Source of the DNA: an uncultured archaeon
GTDB taxonomy: Archaea; Asgardarchaeota; Lokiarchaeia; Sigyniarchaeales; SOKP01
Assembly (NCBI GenBank): GCA_964600195.1
Contig: CAZRIR010000001.1
Span: forward strand, 1-33,185
Direction: 5' to 3'
DNA length: 33,185 nucleotides
How positions within the stretch are numbered: position 1 is the first letter of the stretch; each line of letters opens with the position of its first letter. Of this stretch, positions 8,796-24,722 are shown in pieces. A model generated the notes under the pieces. It made no database searches. It saw only the letters and a program-made list of their open reading frames with translations, and was not told the origin of the DNA. The position numbers were made by a program, and so were the translations under genes.

Positions 8796-9461
8796 ATGAC
8801 CATAATTACAACAAAAAAACCTTTTGAAGAAATTCTTGGAGCAATAAAAGATTTTAAGAAGATTACCATTGTTTCATGTAATTCTTGTGCGGCCATGTGT
8901 CAAACCGGGGGTGAAGAAGGAGCGAAAGAAATGGCAGAAAAATTAGAAGGCCAAGGATTTAGCGTTGTTTCAGTCATAGTTCCTGAAGAAGTATGTGATA
9001 ATCGAGTCATGCTCAAGGATTTCAGGAAAATTGATGAGGATTTAAATAATACGGATGCAATATTAACTCTAAGTTGTGGACTTGGAGTTGCTAGTATAAT
9101 AAATACGCTAGAAAAGAATCATCCTAACATTCCCGTATTCATCGGCACCAATACCGAGTTTATGGGGATGACAGAAAGAATTGGAAGGTTCTACATGCGA
9201 TGTAGGGGATGTGGCGACTGCTTGTTGAATGAAACGGGGGGAATTTGCCCCATAACCACCTGTGCCAAGTCACTCATGAATGGTCCTTGTGGGGGAATGG
9301 TAAAGGGCAAGTGTGAAGTGGGGAATTATGAACGAGATTGTGGATGGGTTTTAATTTATGAACGATTGAAACAGCTCGGAAGGTTGGATTTATTCTCAAA
9401 ATTGAGAGATCCTGTTGATTGGAGCGAATCAGGACATCAAAGAGAGGTTGTTTGGAGGTAG
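8796..9461 (+). CDS. metV: MetV-like protein (methylene-tetrahydrofolate reductase C-terminal domain, Cys-rich)
   Basis: C-terminal CRGCGDCLLNETGGICPITTCAKSLMNGPCGG...CEVG...CGW matches the MTHFR_C zinc/Fe-S domain. It lies immediately upstream of metF with a 6-nt gap. Confidence 0.75.
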   Translation: MTIITTKKPFEEILGAIKDFKKITIVSCNSCAAMCQTGGEEGAKEMAEKLEGQGFSVVSVIVPEEVCDNRVMLKDFRKIDEDLNNTDAILTLSCGLGVASIINTLEKNHPNIPVFIGTNTEFMGMTERIGRFYMRCRGCGDCLLNETGGICPITTCAKSLMNGPCGGMVKGKCEVGNYERDCGWVLIYERLKQLGRLDLFSKLRDPVDWSESGHQREVVWR

Positions 9462-9467
9462 AGGAAA

Positions 9468-10397
9468 ATGGCAGAAAAAAAAGTATTTTCAAAATTAGGA
9501 GAGGTACTTGCAAAAGGTGAGTTCGTTCTTACAGGCGAGCTCGAGCCTGAGAAGACGTGCGATCTTTCACACCTGGTTCAGGAAGCCAAGGAAATGGCCC
9601 CCTATGTCGTTGCAGCTAACGTCACTGACAGTCCATTGGGAATTGTGACCATCAACAGCCTTGCCGCTTGCGCAATCGTTCAAAGAGATGCCGGCTTGGA
9701 ATGCATCTGGCAACTAACCGTGAGAGATGTGAACAAGTTAGGGATCGCAGGAATGATAATGGGTGCGGAGGCGCTTGGCATTCATAACGTGCTTTCTTTG
9801 ACCGGCGATCATCCCAACATGGGAGACATGCCGGAATCAAAACCCGTCTTTGATCTCGACTCTGCCACGTTAGTAAAGCTCGTAAGAGAAATGGTAGATA
9901 CTGGAAGCATCAATAAGAAAGAAATCGAGCATCCACCCAAGCTACACGTGGGTGGGGCTGCAAATCCCAATTCCGATCCCATGGAAGCGGAAGCACTAAA
10001 GATAGGTCGTAAAGCTGAAGCCGGAGCGGAATTCATACAAACCCAAGTCGTTTACGACTTGGATAAAACCATAGAATTCTTGCAGGCGATCCAGAAATAC
10101 AAAGTTCCCGTCTTGCTTGGATTGTTTCCCATGAAAAGTTATGCCATTGCCAAGGGTTTTGACATGTTTGTTCCAGGAGTGGACGTGCCAAAGGACATCC
10201 TTGCCAAATGGAAGGGCATCAAGACAGACATTACGGACAAGAAGGATCAAAATGAAGCTTACGATCAAGCTAATTATGATTTTTTCAAACCTTTTGTAAC
10301 CGAACTGAAAGCGAAAAAGTTACTTGCAGGAGTGCACTGCATGGCAGTACATTATCCACGAATTTTCCCCAGACTAGTAGAAGTTATTAAAGGATGA
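9468..10397 (+). CDS. metF: 5,10-methylenetetrahydrofolate reductase (MetF family)
   Basis: 309 aa with an MTHFR TIM-barrel signature (LTGELEPEK..., VTDSPLG, QLTVRD, LSLTGDHP, FIQTQVVYD). It is markedly more GC-rich than its flanks. Confidence 0.9.
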   Translation: MAEKKVFSKLGEVLAKGEFVLTGELEPEKTCDLSHLVQEAKEMAPYVVAANVTDSPLGIVTINSLAACAIVQRDAGLECIWQLTVRDVNKLGIAGMIMGAEALGIHNVLSLTGDHPNMGDMPESKPVFDLDSATLVKLVREMVDTGSINKKEIEHPPKLHVGGAANPNSDPMEAEALKIGRKAEAGAEFIQTQVVYDLDKTIEFLQAIQKYKVPVLLGLFPMKSYAIAKGFDMFVPGVDVPKDILAKWKGIKTDITDKKDQNEAYDQANYDFFKPFVTELKAKKLLAGVHCMAVHYPRIFPRLVEVIKG

Positions 10398-12871: not shown

Positions 12872-14818
12872 TTGGTTGTGAATACAAGTGATGGAAGTCG
12901 AATTTTCGTTGCAATTTGTCAATGAGGTTTAAATATTGCCGAAATTATTGATTGTAAGGAACTAGCAGGTTATTCAAAAACTCTTCCTAATGTCGTTAGT
13001 AGCGGAAACTATGTCAGTCTCTGTACTACAGCAGGAGCGTCATTCATCCAAGAAAACATGGAATCGAGCAAGGCAAATCGATTGATTATTGCGGCTTGAA
13101 CTCCAAAAACTCATGAGCCCGTATTTAAAACCATTCTTAAAAATACAGGGATTGATCCATCTTATTTGGAATTTGTAAATATAAGAGAACATTCATCATT
13201 CGTTCATAGAAACAATAAAAAAGGTGCCTTTCTTGTTGCTAAGGATTTGATAAGAGCTTCAGTTGCCAGAGCGACAAATTTAGAAAAAATAGAGATAAAA
13301 CAAGTTGATCTTACTAAAAAAACGCTAATAATAGGAGCAGGTGTTGCAGGCTTATCAGCGGCACTCGATTTAGCAGAATTAGGATATGATGTGTACATGG
13401 TTGAAAAAAGACCCAGCATTGGTGGTTTAATGGCCAAGCTTGATAGAACTTTTCCAACTGATGATTGCAGTATTTGAATATTAGGTCCTATCATGCTTAA
13501 AGTAGCGAATGTTCCCAATATTTACATATATACCTTCTCGGAAGTCGAAGATATCTCAGGATTTATAGGTAATTTTAAGGTCATTATTAGAAAAAAAGCA
13601 AGATATGTAACGGAAGATTGTAATGGTTGTGGAGCCTGCGTGGAAGCGTGTCCTGCATATGGTTATGATGAATTTAATGAGTGTTTAAATTCTAGAAAAG
13701 CAATATATACATATTTTGCCCAAGCAGTACCATCAATTGCACAAATTGACATGGAACGTTGCATTCAATGCGAAATCTGTAAAGATGTCTGTGAATTGAA
13801 TGCCATAGATTTTACTCAAAAAGATAGAATTGAGAATGCAAAAGTCGGTTCAATAATAGTAGCTACGGGTCTTGAAGTTCATAAGGGAAAAGAATATGGA
13901 AGGGGAAAATACGAAAATATAATCACTCAACTTGAATTGGAGAGGATTCTAGCTCCAAATGGTCCAACGGTAGGACATTTAGCAAGGCCTTCAGATGGAA
14001 AGCGACCTAAAAAGATATTATTCATTAATTGTGCCGGTTCAAGGGATCGAAATACCCATCCCTATTGTAGCGTTGTATGCTGTAATTTAACAGTTAAAAA
14101 TTCAAAGCTTATAAAATCTGAATACCCTGATACTGAGATTGTTGTAAGCTTCATTGACATGCGATGTGCAGGAAAAGATTATGAAGAATATTATACTCGT
14201 GCAAGAGATAGTGGTATCATTTTTCTTAGAGGTCATATTGGAAACATTACAGAAGATCCTAAATCAAAGGATCTTATCGTTCAAATCGAAGCGTTTACCA
14301 TGGATCGTTTCTTAGAGATGGAATTTGATCTTATTGTCTTATCATCAGCATCAATTCCATCGAAACATGCTAAAAAAATTGAAAAATTGTTAGGATTGGA
14401 GACGAGTCGAGATGGATTCTTTAAAGAAATGCATTCCCGTTTGGATGCAATTGATACAAAAATCCCAGGAATATGCATAGCAGGAGCAGCACAAGGGCCA
14501 AAATCGATACCTGATGCAATAACTCAAGGAAGAGCTGCAGCAGCATCATTAGCAAGTATAATGCACAAGGACACATATGAAATTCTTTTAGTGAGAGGAT
14601 ATATTGATAATGATTCATGCTCAAAATGTGGATTATGTCAATTGAATTGTCCTTATAATGCCATACAGATATCTAAAAGTCATGCGGAAGTCAATGAAAT
14701 TCTCTGTAAAGGATGCGGCACTTGTTTAGCAAATTGTCCATCCGAAGCAATTACCTTAAAATATTATAGAGAATCTCAATATGAAAATCAAATTGATTCA
14801 ATATTGTATGAATATTAA
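12872..14818 (+). CDS. hdrA: Heterodisulfide reductase subunit A with three in-frame UGA (selenocysteine) codons at 12923-12925, 13097-13099 and 13475-13477
   Basis: One continuous frame joins a hand-translated N-terminal part (SRIFVAICQ-U-GLNI...RLIIAA-U-TPKTHEP) with track ORFs 13166..13477 and 13493..14818. The only interruptions are TGA, each aligned to a Cys of the paralogue at 22176..24722. Also present: FAD motif IIGAGVAGLSAA and ferredoxin motifs CNGCGACVEACP, CIQCEICKDVC, CSKCGLCQLNCP, CKGCGTCLANCP. Start is uncertain (TTG 12872, GTG 12878, or near-cognate ATT 12857 after AGGAGGG). Confidence 0.85.
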
Positions 14819-14868
14819 AATTGAGTATAATCTAACAGTGAATAAATAATGCTAAATTGACAATCATT

Positions 14869-14942
14869 TAAACCCGTAAGAATGACTTAAATGAAAAAAT
14901 CGTGATCATTTGAGGACTCGCCCCCGCAAGGGAACGGGTTGT
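14869..14942 (+). promoter_or_regulatory. Candidate SECIS stem-loop in the hdrA 3' UTR
   Basis: AACCCGT (14871-14877) pairs perfectly with ACGGGTT (14934-14940). The interior holds CCC-GCAA-GGG (14923-14932) and AAUGA/UCAUU complements. It is the only GC-rich island in this AT-rich spacer and begins about 50 nt after the stop. Confidence 0.45.
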
Positions 14943-15085
14943 ATTAATATGATTTTAATATTAACTGAAATCCAATAAATGTTAATAGAAAGAATTTTAA
15001 AAATTTTCAAAAAAAAATTCACTATTTTTAATCGCTAATCATTAGAAAAAGAAATAAAATATATTTTTGAGTTTATTCTTTTATT

Positions 15086-16765
15086 TTAATCCCATTTGCC
15101 TTTAACTCGAGCATTTTTTATATCGTTGTCCAATCTTCTTTGTAAAATGATATAATCAGGTCTATTATTTTTTGTCAGAGGAAATTCATCAAGAAATACA
15201 ACTAATGAAGGTCTTTTATAAGATGCCATTCCTTTACAATGCTCATCGATTTCTGAAAGAGTTAAATCTGCATTATCTTTAATTTTTATATAAGCAACAA
15301 TGCCCTCAGTAAATATGGTGTGTTTAGCACCTAATACTCCAACATTCTCAACTTCGGGAATTTCCGAAATGAAATCCTCGATTTCTGGTTGAAATACTCT
15401 ATAACCCTTGGGATTAATCATGTATTTTTTTCTACCTGCCAGATGGATTCCTTTTTCATCTTTATAACCCATATCTCCCGTGTATAATATGGCATCGTAA
15501 GAGAGCACTGCTCTTGTCGCAACTTCATAATTTAAATATCCAAAAAAAGTTTGAGAACCCTCGAAACATATTTCTCCAATTTCACCATCTGGGAGGACAT
15601 CTCCTGCAAACCCGTTTTCATTCATTTTAGCCCTTATAGTTGCGGGAAATATTGCAAAAGGATGACCAAGACCATTCAATATCTCTTCGATAGTCGCCTC
15701 CTCAGGAGTATATGTGCATAAACCTGAAGTTTCAGTGAGGCCTAATCCAGTACCAATTCTAGGAGCCATTTTTATAAGTTTTTCTAAGAATCCCATATCT
15801 ACGGATTGCCCACTATAGATTGCATGTTTTAAAGAACTTAAATCAAAATTATTATAATCATGCAAATTCCATTCCATTGAATATGATGCGGGTATTTGAC
15901 CTAAACATGTAATCTTATAGTCTTGAATTGCTAATAATGATTTTTCTGCTTCAAACCGATGTAATATGATTGCGGTTCCTCCAACATAGAGGATCGTCAT
16001 CAATTGTTCTGTAGATCCTCCAATAAATGCAAAAGGCATGTTTACCATCATTCGATCATCTCCGGTAATATTAAATGCTTTTGCCAAGCACATGTTCTGG
16101 CAAGTAATACTTAAATTGGTCAACATCGTAGGTTTTGGAAATGCTGTAGTTCCCATCGTGAATATTAATAAGATCGGATCTTTTTCACCAACTTTCTCAC
16201 ATTCATTTTCAAATTCTTTTAGAAGATTCTTATTGTTTAGTGCTTCTTTATATTCATGCTCAGCTTCTTTAATTAGCTTGTGTCCGTTTATCAATCCATC
16301 CGTATAATTTTCATTCATGTATCCAAATTGGACTATATAATTCAACCAGGGATAATTTTGATGTATGACAGAACCAATTATATTATAATTCTGATATTGT
16401 GTTTTACCTAAATGGCAGTACATTTTTATCCTATTTCTCAATAAGGAAAACGATATCATGATTTCAGGAGGTTTTAAGCTTAGGTCTAATGGACACCACA
16501 TTATTCCAAGTTTAACGCAAGCATAACCAATGATGAAGTGTTCATACGTATTTGGAAGACTTGCCACACATATATCTCCCTTTCTTAATCCCATGTTGTA
16601 TAATTTAAAAGCCATCATGTTAATCGCATCTGAAAATTCTCTATAAGATACTTCAGCTTTGGTATTGAAAAAGATCATTGCGTCATGATTAGGCTTATTT
16701 TCAGTCCATTTTTCTATGGCACCAACAAGGGTATGAGGATATTTTTCAAATTCTTCCCAAGACAT
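15086..16765 (-). CDS. AMP-dependent synthetase/ligase (acyl- or aryl-CoA synthetase family)
   Basis: 559 aa with a divergent AMP-binding P-loop (FTMGTTAFPKPTML), YTGDMGY, and a C-terminal KRPSLVVFLDEFPLTKNNR. Confidence 0.85.
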   Translation of the reverse strand: MSWEEFEKYPHTLVGAIEKWTENKPNHDAMIFFNTKAEVSYREFSDAINMMAFKLYNMGLRKGDICVASLPNTYEHFIIGYACVKLGIMWCPLDLSLKPPEIMISFSLLRNRIKMYCHLGKTQYQNYNIIGSVIHQNYPWLNYIVQFGYMNENYTDGLINGHKLIKEAEHEYKEALNNKNLLKEFENECEKVGEKDPILLIFTMGTTAFPKPTMLTNLSITCQNMCLAKAFNITGDDRMMVNMPFAFIGGSTEQLMTILYVGGTAIILHRFEAEKSLLAIQDYKITCLGQIPASYSMEWNLHDYNNFDLSSLKHAIYSGQSVDMGFLEKLIKMAPRIGTGLGLTETSGLCTYTPEEATIEEILNGLGHPFAIFPATIRAKMNENGFAGDVLPDGEIGEICFEGSQTFFGYLNYEVATRAVLSYDAILYTGDMGYKDEKGIHLAGRKKYMINPKGYRVFQPEIEDFISEIPEVENVGVLGAKHTIFTEGIVAYIKIKDNADLTLSEIDEHCKGMASYKRPSLVVFLDEFPLTKNNRPDYIILQRRLDNDIKNARVKGKWD

Positions 16766-22046: not shown

Positions 22047-22175
22047 ACCTTCGTTCTATTATAAATATGACATTTCATATTTGGTAGAAAATTTTTCAAA
22101 ATTCTTGATTTTCAAATTTTTTTTATCAAGGTGATTAACTATTCATTATTAAATGGTGGAAGGGATGGAAAACAA

Positions 22176-24722
22176 ATGGACATTTATTCAATATTATCTC
22201 ATGAGTTTAGAAGGAATATTTTGTTCCTGCTTGAAAAAGAAGGATACATTCCCTATACTGATTTAATGGATAAGCTAGGTTTAGACCAAACAGGGCAGCT
22301 CAATTTTCATTTAAGAAAACTTGGTTCTCTTATTGGAAAAGACAAAAAATCATATTTTTTAACTGAGGATGGTAAAAGAATTTTAAAAATACTCAGCATC
22401 AATAAAAGAATCTTATCAGGAGAAGAAGTAGAATATATCAATTCCAAAGGGAGTGAAATAAATAGAATAGGAGTAATTATTTGTAATTGTAATACTGAAA
22501 TCTCCAACACGATTGATATAAACGCACTAGAAAAATACATAAACAGGTTGCCAAATGTTGTTTCAGTAAAGATTTTTGAAAATTTATGTCAAGAGAAAAA
22601 TTTAGAAAAAATATCCGATTGGGTTAAAGAAAATTTTCTAAATAAAGTTGTCATTGCTGCTTGTTCTCCAAAATCGCATCAACTTGTCTTTGAACGAATT
22701 TTTGAGGAAGTAATAGATAAGTCAAACATTGAAATTGCTAATATAAGAGAACAATGTTGCTGGGTTCATCAAGGAAACGATAAACAAATTGAATCCTCTC
22801 AAGTATTGAAAAAGGCTCAATTACTAATCGAAGCTGCAGTTGAATGTTTATACCTTCAGAAAGAAGTAAAAGTTAAGAGGGTCGAAGTAGAAAAAAGTTG
22901 TGCAATATTGGGAGGGGGTATTGCGGGCATGACACTAGCATTAAATTTAGCTAGAGCCGGAATTAAAGTCTACCTAATCGAAAAAAGTCCTACTTTAGGT
23001 GGTAAGGTGGCACGATGGCATAGAATCCATAAAATGGGTGATTGTTCAATTTGTTTCATTTCAGAATTAATAGGTGAAATTGTAAAAGAAAAAAATATAG
23101 AAATTTTAACAAATTGCGAGATAACGAGCGTTTCGGGAGAAGTAGGTAATTTTTCAATAAATCTAATTAAAAAACCTCGATATATTGATGAGAAAAAATG
23201 TACTGGTTGCATGCAATGCATTGATGTATGCAGCATGGAAAAACCGAATCAATATGAGTTCAATCTCGTTAATCGGAAGATTATTTTCCTTCCTTTCCAA
23301 AACTCATATCCCTACACGCCTATTATTGAAGAAGAAGACATAAAGAATTGTCTCAATTGTAGAATTTGCGAAAGAGCATGCATGAATAATGCAATTGACT
23401 TAAATCAAAAACCAGAGGCAATTAAAATAAAAGCTGGTGTAAAGGCCATTGCTATAGGTGCCGATCTATATTCTGATCTAGAGGAATATCACCATGACCC
23501 TAAAAAAAACATCATCACTTCGGTTGAATTTGAAAGAATTTTATCATCAGATGGTCTTACTGAGGGGAAGATTTTAAAGCTTTCCGATAATAAACCGCCA
23601 AAAACAATATCAATTATTCAGGATATTGGACCTAATCGAGATCATTTAGGCCTTACGGATATAATTGCTCAAAAATATTTAAATTGTATTAGTGTTAAAA
23701 ATCCAGATAGTCAGGTAAAAGTATTTTACACCATGAATAACTTGTATCATAATCATGAAGCGATCATCAAATCTACAGATCCGAGATTCTATTATGTCAA
23801 TCAACTTGAAATAAAAAGAGAAAATGATGAAAACATCATTATCGCAGATAATAAAGAGTATCCAAGTGATTTGATTGTACTAAATCTTGATTTGATACCT
23901 AATAAGGATTTAAAAAACCTTAGAAAGACTTTAGATTTTACTCTAGATGATAACGGATTCATGAGTGAAGATACGTTAGCTTCTGGTATATTTGGTGTCG
24001 GAACAATCCTTGGTCCTTACAATTATCAATCAACAATAAATAGTGCTAATAAAGTTGCACTAGAAATCATATCACTCCTTTCAAATGATTATTTGATCTC
24101 GGAATTTACGGGAGTGGAAATCGACCATAAAAGATGTGGTCTATGTTCTTTATGCGTGAATGCTTGCCCTTATAATGCCATTACTATTGAAGATGACAAA
24201 ATCAATATTGATAAGTTTAAATGCAAGGGTTGTGGTACTTGCGTGAGTGTTTGTCCTACAAATGCGATTGAAATGAATATAGATACTGATGAAAAAATAC
24301 TTAGAAAAATAGATATTTATTCGGGGTTTAATGCCACGCCCAAAATACTAGCTTTTTGCTGTAAATCTTGTGGATATGCCGCAGCTGATGATGCCGGACT
24401 CAAAAAACAGTTTTATAAACCCAATATCTTTATCATTAGAGTTCCCTGTACGGGGCGTATTGATACACATTTTATAACAAGAGCTTTCGAAAAGGGATTT
24501 CAAGGTGTCATGATTATTGGATGCAGGAAAGATGCTTGTAGATATATCGATGGTATTCAAAAAGTACAGAAAAAAGTTCAACTTTTGAAAAAAGTCTTGG
24601 GTCCACGACTAAGCAGGAAAATCATCATTAAAAATCTAAATGCTGTCGAAGGAATCAAGTTTTCAAATTTTGTAAATAGATTTTATCATATATTAAAGGA
24701 GGAATACGAATTTGCGACTTAA
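22176..24722 (+). CDS. hdrA: Fusion protein: ArsR-like winged HTH + HdrA (Cys type) + C-terminal MvhD domain
   Basis: N terminus SILSHEFRRNILFLLEKEGYIPYTDLMDKLGLDQTGQLNFHLRKLGSLIGKDKKSYFLTEDGKRIL is a wHTH. HdrA motifs: VIICNCNTEI, IAACSPKSHQ, REQCCWVH, GGGIAGM, GDCSICF and four CxxCxxCxxxC(P) motifs. C terminus ILAFCCKSCGYAAAD...RVPCTGRID...IIGCRKDACRY is MvhD/FlpD-like. The track start is GTG 22131; ATG 22176 sits after a GGAAGGGATGG purine run. Confidence 0.85.
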   Translation: MDIYSILSHEFRRNILFLLEKEGYIPYTDLMDKLGLDQTGQLNFHLRKLGSLIGKDKKSYFLTEDGKRILKILSINKRILSGEEVEYINSKGSEINRIGVIICNCNTEISNTIDINALEKYINRLPNVVSVKIFENLCQEKNLEKISDWVKENFLNKVVIAACSPKSHQLVFERIFEEVIDKSNIEIANIREQCCWVHQGNDKQIESSQVLKKAQLLIEAAVECLYLQKEVKVKRVEVEKSCAILGGGIAGMTLALNLARAGIKVYLIEKSPTLGGKVARWHRIHKMGDCSICFISELIGEIVKEKNIEILTNCEITSVSGEVGNFSINLIKKPRYIDEKKCTGCMQCIDVCSMEKPNQYEFNLVNRKIIFLPFQNSYPYTPIIEEEDIKNCLNCRICERACMNNAIDLNQKPEAIKIKAGVKAIAIGADLYSDLEEYHHDPKKNIITSVEFERILSSDGLTEGKILKLSDNKPPKTISIIQDIGPNRDHLGLTDIIAQKYLNCISVKNPDSQVKVFYTMNNLYHNHEAIIKSTDPRFYYVNQLEIKRENDENIIIADNKEYPSDLIVLNLDLIPNKDLKNLRKTLDFTLDDNGFMSEDTLASGIFGVGTILGPYNYQSTINSANKVALEIISLLSNDYLISEFTGVEIDHKRCGLCSLCVNACPYNAITIEDDKINIDKFKCKGCGTCVSVCPTNAIEMNIDTDEKILRKIDIYSGFNATPKILAFCCKSCGYAAADDAGLKKQFYKPNIFIIRVPCTGRIDTHFITRAFEKGFQGVMIIGCRKDACRYIDGIQKVQKKVQLLKKVLGPRLSRKIIIKNLNAVEGIKFSNFVNRFYHILKEEYEFAT

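Follow-up and report, generated by a model that had tools for sequence, protein, structure and literature searches.

In a Lokiarchaeial genome with a G+C content of 30%, a gene coding for HdrA carries three in-frame UGA codons, and is followed by a sequence able to fold into a stem-loop. The original prediction took this sequence for a candidate SECIS element, lodged in the 3' UTR and serving all three codons, and left its class open. Whether the assignment holds, and to which kind of SECIS the element belongs, is the question raised by the locus. To our knowledge, no archaeal SECIS-binding protein is known, and for this reason the link between the SECIS elements of archaeal 3' UTRs and distant UGA codons is unsettled. 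The Lokiarchaeial SECIS has been proposed as a bridge to the eukaryotic SECIS. Analysis of the whole stretch of DNA (33,185 nt, hereafter the window), and of related genomes, led us to conclude, with a probability of roughly 90%, that the segment 14870-14941 is the SECIS belonging to a stand-alone hdrA gene with three predicted Sec sites, and that its core, of the lokiSECIS kind, makes one arm of a three-way junction of ~70 nt.

The hdrA gene (12872-14818, forward strand) is a single frame of 648 codons once TGA is read as U; the start is approximate (TTG at 12872), the ORF reading contains three odd steps, and the stop is the TAA at 14816-14818, where the original prediction had placed it. 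The product carries Fer4 and FAD/NAD-binding domains (Pfam), and its relatives are encoded by MAGs of Promethearchaeota (Lokiarchaeota). The first UGA (codon 18, 12923-12925, context ICQ-U-GLN) lies 1959 nt upstream of the SECIS core, and is U in two orthologues and in a paralogue of the same genome. The second (codon 76, 13097-13099, AA-U-TPKTHEP) precedes the core by 1785 nt; the orthologues have U at this site, and the paralogue, found on contig C200, has Cys. The third (codon 202, 13475-13477, CSI-U-ILGP), 1407 nt upstream of the core, corresponds to the canonical Sec site of HdrA, which the main text of Mariotti 2016 (PMC4989117) places near residue 200. The orthologues are ~80% identical to the protein, and the two full-length ones, both from the same genus, retain all three UGA sites. 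One orthologous gene (L041, G004:C214) retains five in-frame UGA codons.

The element can be dissected into three helices, all read on the forward strand. Helix I is made by the arms AACCCGU (14871-14877) and ACGGGUU (14934-14940), the latter being the exact reverse complement of AACCCGT, and encloses everything else. A spacer AAGA (14878-14881; 4-6 nt in relatives) leads to the AUGA core (14882-14885), the 5' half of a presumed G.A/A.G kink-turn quartet. Helix II follows, with a 5' arm of 9 nt (14886-14894) and a 3' arm (14906-14914) supported by the predicted fold and by covariation; all nine pairs are standard, one being U.G. The apical loop in between (14895-14905) measures 11 nt, reads AAAAA-UCGUGA, with the opening run of A residues at 14895-14899, and ends GA, as opposed to (U)AG in relatives. 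Directly behind the 9-bp helix come the GA of the 3' half of the core (14915-14916), which with C14917 makes up a conserved GAC, and the linker CUCGCC (14917-14922), delimited by alignment of relatives. Helix III is the small hairpin CCC-GCAA-GGG (14923-14932), the loop of which carries a conserved G-C/U-N motif; a single unpaired A (14933), seen in both fold and alignment, separates it from the 3' arm of helix I.

All the strings named in the original prediction are found where it had located them, and the outer stem and the GCAA hairpin it described are genuine parts of the structure, corresponding to helices I and III. The functional reading of two details had to be changed. The GA next to the closing arm (14932-14933) had been pointed out, but the working GA is the one at 14915-14916. 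Similarly, AAUGA does occur twice (14881-14885 and 14890-14894), and UCAUU once (14906-14910), yet the two former strings are not alternative partners of the latter, as the core lies within the first, and the second belongs to the 5' arm of helix II.

Folding of the region 14850-14960 by RNAfold, a check suggested at the outset, yielded the outer stem, the 9-bp hairpin inside it and the small hairpin with the GCAA loop (-24.3 kcal/mol, z = -2.2, with 6 of 200 shuffled sequences folding equally well). The tighter cut 14866-14945 folds into the same three helices, and no others, and the core hairpin alone accounts for -7.1 kcal/mol. Such statistics are modest, and the case therefore rests on the comparison with relatives. 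Taken at face value, a z of only about -2.2 might also denote a GC-rich hairpin arisen by chance, or an intergenic structure of a generic sort, next to a gene in which UGA is read otherwise, for instance upon reassignment of the codon throughout the genome. The same could be said of the lack of matches to known RNA families: no SECIS or other relevant family was returned by Rfam, either at gathering score or in a search of 14780-15100 at E ≤ 10.

A covariance model built from relatives gave a different answer from the Rfam families. The model (R2) was trained on 52 elements belonging to other genes and other genomes; the flagged element and its three orthologues were left out. Used to search both strands of the whole 33-kb window with filters off, it matched 14870-14941 at 49.1 bits (E 1.5e-10), the sole significant hit; the next best among the 33 matches listed scored 13 bits, and no better candidate was found in the transcript or elsewhere in the window. 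Together, the match in geometry and this unique hit uphold the idea of a 3' UTR SECIS for the three hdrA codons.

A comparison with other UGA-containing genes of the same genome had been suggested, and a shared structure was found. A strict pattern scan combined with the covariance model detected six more elements, all located directly behind genes with in-frame UGA codons: the paralogous hdrA-vhuD pair (C200), a selD gene with the motif HG-U-SCK (C221), three genes for Prx-like proteins with UU or CUU motifs (two on C182, one on C336) and an ORF for a small membrane protein (C46). Family members outside the genome obey the same rule, and reside only behind UGA-containing genes. A model of the whole unit, 73 positions long, found 1-9 full-length matches per genome in 25 of the 25 family genomes searched, for a total of about 125. 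All 38 matches of five near-complete genomes were fetched; they sit behind vhuD/frhD-like genes, hdrA, selD, genes for Prx-like proteins and several small unannotated ORFs containing UGA.

Reassignment of UGA is at odds with the usage of the codon, which is also an ordinary stop in this genome, since the UGA contained in the AUGA core is the stop of ORFs of the vhuD type. It is also at odds with the presence of a Sec machinery. The genome encodes SepSecS (372 bits), and a tRNA gene adjoins it, which features the anticodon loop CUUCAAA, hence the anticodon UCA (G000:C329:2759-2828, reverse strand, and ~60 nt upstream; L108). The piece corresponding to the 5' acceptor and the D-arm, GGCCCUUGACGGUUGG, is split from the remainder by an A/U-rich insertion of ~33 nt. 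The gene was recognized by reading of the sequence, together with a match of the Rfam tRNA-Sec model at 37.9 bits, below the cut-off, and ARAGORN, which missed the split gene, reported no tRNA-Sec over the genome. SelD is encoded as well, by the gene with in-frame UGA mentioned above. EFSec and PSTK were not identified in the assembly, which is 69% complete; TIGR00475 (selB) gave only sub-threshold matches to GTPases. Spread of the family, covariation within it, as described below, and the independent covariance-model match effectively refute both the chance hairpin and the reassignment of UGA.

Some of the genes lying upstream of family members deserve mention in their own right. The full-length extended SECIS at G000:C46:6074-6147 (reverse strand; L062:1501-1574:-), which scores 52.5 bits, is found 23 nt behind an ORF of ~45 codons, coding for a single-pass membrane protein that ends ...TPGG-U-GC. 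Comparable small membrane ORFs precede a SECIS in five other genomes (L070, L078, L087, L093 and L104), and feature the Sec motifs GGG-U-GC, GGG-U-PSTC, GPS-U-LC, GGGG-U-AC and CLP-U-G. They make a candidate family of small membrane selenoproteins, absent from published Asgard lists. In two further loci (L073, G018:C106, and L105, G024:C40) small ORFs resembling zinc ribbons (C-x2-C ... C-x2-C) end ...FK-U before TAA or TAG, and an extended SECIS lies 36-39 nt downstream; these may encode a mini-protein with C-terminal Sec. The selD SECIS of the genome under study (G000:C221:67-137, reverse strand; L063) combines helix III with plain type I geometry (stem of 9 bp, loop of 11 nt), and differs in this from the type II form with an apical mini-stem, which is described for SPS/selD of Loki in the main text of Mariotti 2016 (PMC4989117).

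The three-way junction is a property of the whole family, and not of this locus. The elements of the three orthologous stand-alone hdrA genes (L041-L043) and of the hdrA-vhuD paralogue share one layout. In the 5' to 3' direction, helix I opens it, and a spacer of 4-6 nt leads to AUGA; helix II with its loop is followed by GA, by a C with a few further bases, and by hairpin III, which 0-2 nt separate from the closing arm of helix I. The same layout is seen in about 30 hdrA-vhuD loci of other genomes of Promethearchaeota. In the three orthologous loci most positions of helix II have changed, and pairing has been kept. In an alignment of 60 distinct elements (A3), which was fitted to the model and has thus pair counts biased towards the structure, standard pairs fill 76%, 92% and 86% of the cells of helices I, II and III, respectively, and all of the 19 pairs, including the five of helix III, have changed on both sides. 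The covariation score of 0.657 was reached by none of 500 shuffles, and drops to 0.159 or less if the 3' partners are displaced by 1-3 columns. Alignment by MAFFT only gave 0.625 versus at most 0.234 upon sliding, with helix III paired in 84% of the cells, and, for the hdrA subset, 0.344 versus at most 0.090. The register of helix I slips in MAFFT-only alignments because the spacer varies in length. Between genes, helix I sequences are diverse yet paired (CCGA/UCGG, GCUAGA/UCUAGC, CUCCC/GGGAG, UCUGAA/UUCAGA); in the hdrA subset CCG/CGG never varies, and covariation is limited to the flanking pair, so that evidence of covariation for helix I comes mainly from the other gene families. The AUGA core is found in 57 of the 60 elements, the exceptions being AGGA, AUGC and AUAA. 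Near-invariant are also the C following GA (as GAC or AAC), the CC/GG of helix III, and, in the loop of this helix, a G that precedes C or U.

Whether the three helices make up one functional unit can be debated. It may be argued that only the hairpin formed by AUGA, helix II and GA is the SECIS, and that helices I and III are a distinct module travelling along with it at the 3' end, devoted to termination or to protection from exonucleases. In the published descriptions the hairpin alone suffices, and a few elements of our set, such as L087 and L001, are without a convincing helix I. Moreover, U-runs are mildly enriched just past helix I: runs of five or more T occur within 25 nt after 21 of 60 elements, versus 6 of 59 at a distance of 75-100 nt. 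This excess is a thin hint that transcripts may end right behind the element. In the window, a short U-run (14953-14956), 13 nt after helix I, may be regarded as a weak candidate for such an end.

However, helix I does not follow the core but encloses it, and would thus set the geometry of the AUGA/GA internal loop. The near-invariance of the GAC of the linker and of the G in the helix III loop across gene families suggests specific recognition rather than a generic clamp. A scan for hairpins followed by U residues, the signature of bacterial-type terminators, detected none at the element, and archaeal termination generally needs oligo-U alone. All considered, that helices I and III are mere companions of the hairpin seems rather unlikely to us, and the junction is probably part of the SECIS.

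One peculiarity of the locus is the genetic setting. According to the main text of Mariotti 2016 (PMC4989117), hdrA occurs only in tandem with vhuD, and the SECIS is found after vhuD; in Huang 2024 (PMC11227280) hdrA and frhD are "always" neighbours. Here the gene found 3' of hdrA encodes an AMP-binding enzyme (15086-16765), and is convergent to it. Neither vhuD nor frhD is present in the 267-nt gap between the two genes. A remnant of vhuD behind hdrA was considered and rejected, the gap being too short to hold a gene of ~150 codons. The three orthologous loci of the genus are organized in the same way, with the SECIS straight after hdrA and no intervening vhuD; the convergent AMP-binding gene is conserved in two of them, and in the third an HdrC-like gene comes next on the same strand. 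A stand-alone hdrA with a private SECIS is thus an exception to the published adjacency of hdrA and vhuD/frhD. The AUGA core starts 63 nt 3' of the hdrA stop; in most relatives it overlaps the stop, or starts within ~20 nt from it.

The protein is 62-65% identical to HdrA encoded by genes that do have a vhuD partner, and in helix I and the linker its SECIS bears the signature of that group. The simplest history would be that vhuD has been lost, and the signal retained. Genes for hdrA directly followed by a SECIS, with no vhuD, have been found in other genera too (L085, G041:C72; L095, G015:C59; L102, G024:C64). The SECIS is of the AA type in the first two, and has GA in the third; the HdrA proteins carry a short C-terminal tail reminiscent of the end of VhuD, and the loci represent a second kind of exception to the adjacency. 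As to the surroundings, genes similar to metV (DUF5981) and metF (MTHFR) reside ~2.5 kb upstream of the stand-alone hdrA (8796-10394 of the window, forward strand), and a second HdrA, of the Cys type and fused to an MvhD/FlpD domain, is encoded at 22131-24719 (forward strand). This context suggests an electron-bifurcating methylene-THF reductase of the MetFV-HdrA type, to which hdrA might be functionally linked.

One base of the element deviates from the family. The loop terminates with U-G-A, the G being one position early, while the last base is G in 59 of the 60 distinct aligned elements, mostly as UAG. The main text of Mariotti 2016 (PMC4989117) calls this last G "ultraconserved", and reports that it is usually preceded by A. 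Since it has A in place of a near-universal G, this SECIS copy could be weaker. The atypical end, unique among the 60 elements, and the missing vhuD partner could be taken as signs of a SECIS in decay, behind a hdrA that is a pseudogene or supports the synthesis of a truncated product only. The same loop end was found in contigs of three independent metagenome runs (marine sediment 2015, salt marsh 2019, marsh 2025), and because the three assemblies agree, it is real, and not an assembly error. The identity of the sequence in three independent metagenomes speaks against decay, and the sole variant observed within the element, T14888C (run X3, one salt-marsh assembly), changes the pair 14888/14912 from U.G to C-G, and hence strengthens helix II. 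Every other SECIS feature is intact, as is the frame of 648 codons save for UGA at Cys-equivalent sites, and orthologues ~80% identical carry the same three UGA codons. A SECIS on its way to extinction is thus very improbable. In one of the orthologous elements (L041:2084-2087, G004:C214) the core reads AGGA rather than AUGA, which denotes either a tolerated variant or an assembly error.

How would an intact SECIS of this sort work? The element would act in cis from the 3' UTR of the hdrA mRNA. The bases of AUGA and GA may form tandem sheared G.A pairs, so that helix II would rest on a kink-turn-like core. The lower, GC-rich helix I would close the junction, and helix III, with its loop of the G-C-A type, would project from the strand lying 3' of GA. 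A putative SECIS-binding factor, an EFSec of archaeal/eukaryotic type and Sec-tRNA(UCA) would engage the element, and ribosomes would then decode UGA as selenocysteine, and not as a stop, at the three sites that precede the core by 1959, 1785 and 1407 nt.

A broader proposal can be put forward, to which we give a little less than an even chance. According to it, the working SECIS of Lokiarchaeia is a junction of ~70 nt akin to a k-junction, and not a 35-nt hairpin. The lower helix, the 3' hairpin with the near-invariant G of its loop and the GAC linker would all be needed for recognition by the binding factor. The SECIS of the stand-alone hdrA would then be a module kept privately after the loss of vhuD, in which the "ultraconserved" G would be able to shift by one position.

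The locus is a clean natural test case, in which one SECIS faces all three UGA codons of one gene that lacks a vhuD partner, and this copy provides a natural variant at the most conserved base of the loop. Along with ~60 relatives, it contributes evidence from covariation for a three-helix junction as the functional unit. Such a unit is relevant to the design of reporters, to the hunt for binding factors, and to the models used to search for SECIS elements in Asgard genomes.

Placed among known systems, the element is, to judge from its sequence, a SECIS of a published kind, and not a new class. The question of the class, which the original prediction left undecided after failing to fit the structure to either the methanococcal or the eukaryotic model, is settled in favour of the published lokiSECIS, or Asgard type I eSECIS-like element. 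The lokiSECIS, as described in the main text of Mariotti 2016 (PMC4989117), consists of AUGA, a 9-bp stem, an apical loop of 11 nt in which the first five bases are mostly A, and GA. The element matches it position for position, including the AAAAA at the start of the loop, and deviates at the last loop base only, which is A and not the "ultraconserved" G. Likewise, it resides in the 3' UTR near the stop, and would serve several UGA codons up to ~2 kb away in a multi-Sec hdrA, inclusive of the site near residue 200. In contrast to the published situation, in which one SECIS after vhuD is shared, the lone hdrA has a SECIS of its own. Neither a lower stem, nor a three-way junction or a downstream hairpin is reported in the main text of Mariotti 2016 (PMC4989117), though a supplementary figure may show them.

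The Asgard type I eSECIS-like model of Huang 2024 (PMC11227280) has GA_[G/A]A as its core, allows no more than two mismatches in an upper stem of 7-15 bp, and calls for 8-20 nt in the loop and for an energy lower than -5 kcal/mol; the element agrees with it in all respects. Yet, the structures of Huang 2024 (PMC11227280) have a simple lower stem and only short family-specific motifs, with no second hairpin, whereas in the element described here a covarying helix III, located on the 3' side of the internal loop, turns the structure into a three-way junction.

As the original prediction had it, the methanococcal GAA/A model does not fit. The element does not contain the euryarchaeal GAA_A pattern, which in a scan of 14800-15090 matched only an all-A/U low-complexity string (15045-15069). 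The SECIS of methanococcal VhuD nevertheless has, according to Figure 4B of Mariotti 2016 (PMC4989117), an extra outer stem, the order AUGA...GAC, and a GAC/AAC motif. The order helix I, AUGA, helix II, GAC is the same in the element and in the VhuD SECIS of Methanococcales and Methanopyrus, and helix I resembles the outer stem; in contrast, the GAA_A bulge and the upper stem of three G-C pairs are missing in the main helix. A reading of the element as a methanococcal skeleton (GC-rich helix I, GAA in the spacer, helix III of 3 G-C pairs, a single A on the 3' side) in which a eukaryote-like hairpin has been inserted was rejected as a general scheme, because most relatives do not build helix III from three G-C pairs, and have U, or no base at all, at the 3' unpaired position.

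The arrangement also recalls the k-junction, a kink turn in which an extra helix on the non-bulged strand generates a three-way junction (PMC4005666, PMC10573300). Here too the extra helix (III) is inserted in the strand carrying the 3' GA, the non-bulged one of the presumed kink turn, with the non-canonical helix II on one side and the canonical helix I on the other. However, ~4-6 unpaired nt separate GA from helix III, and the "bulge" on the opposite side measures 6-8 nt rather than 3; linker and bulge being longer than in a canonical k-junction, the resemblance is one of layout only.

Finally, the other half of the original verdict, lack of fit to the eukaryotic AUGA/GA model, did not hold, as the element conforms to it in its lokiSECIS version save for the last base of the loop. 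SBP2 has not been found in Lokiarchaeota, according to the main text of Mariotti 2016 (PMC4989117). Compared with the eukaryotic SECIS (SECIS_1 of Rfam), the element matches no Rfam family, has a shorter helix II (9 bp), and hosts, within the 3' half of its internal loop, an additional hairpin. Yet, the two share the AUGA/GA quartet, the unpaired A residues at the start of the apical loop, a lower helix that closes the structure, and the location in the 3' UTR.
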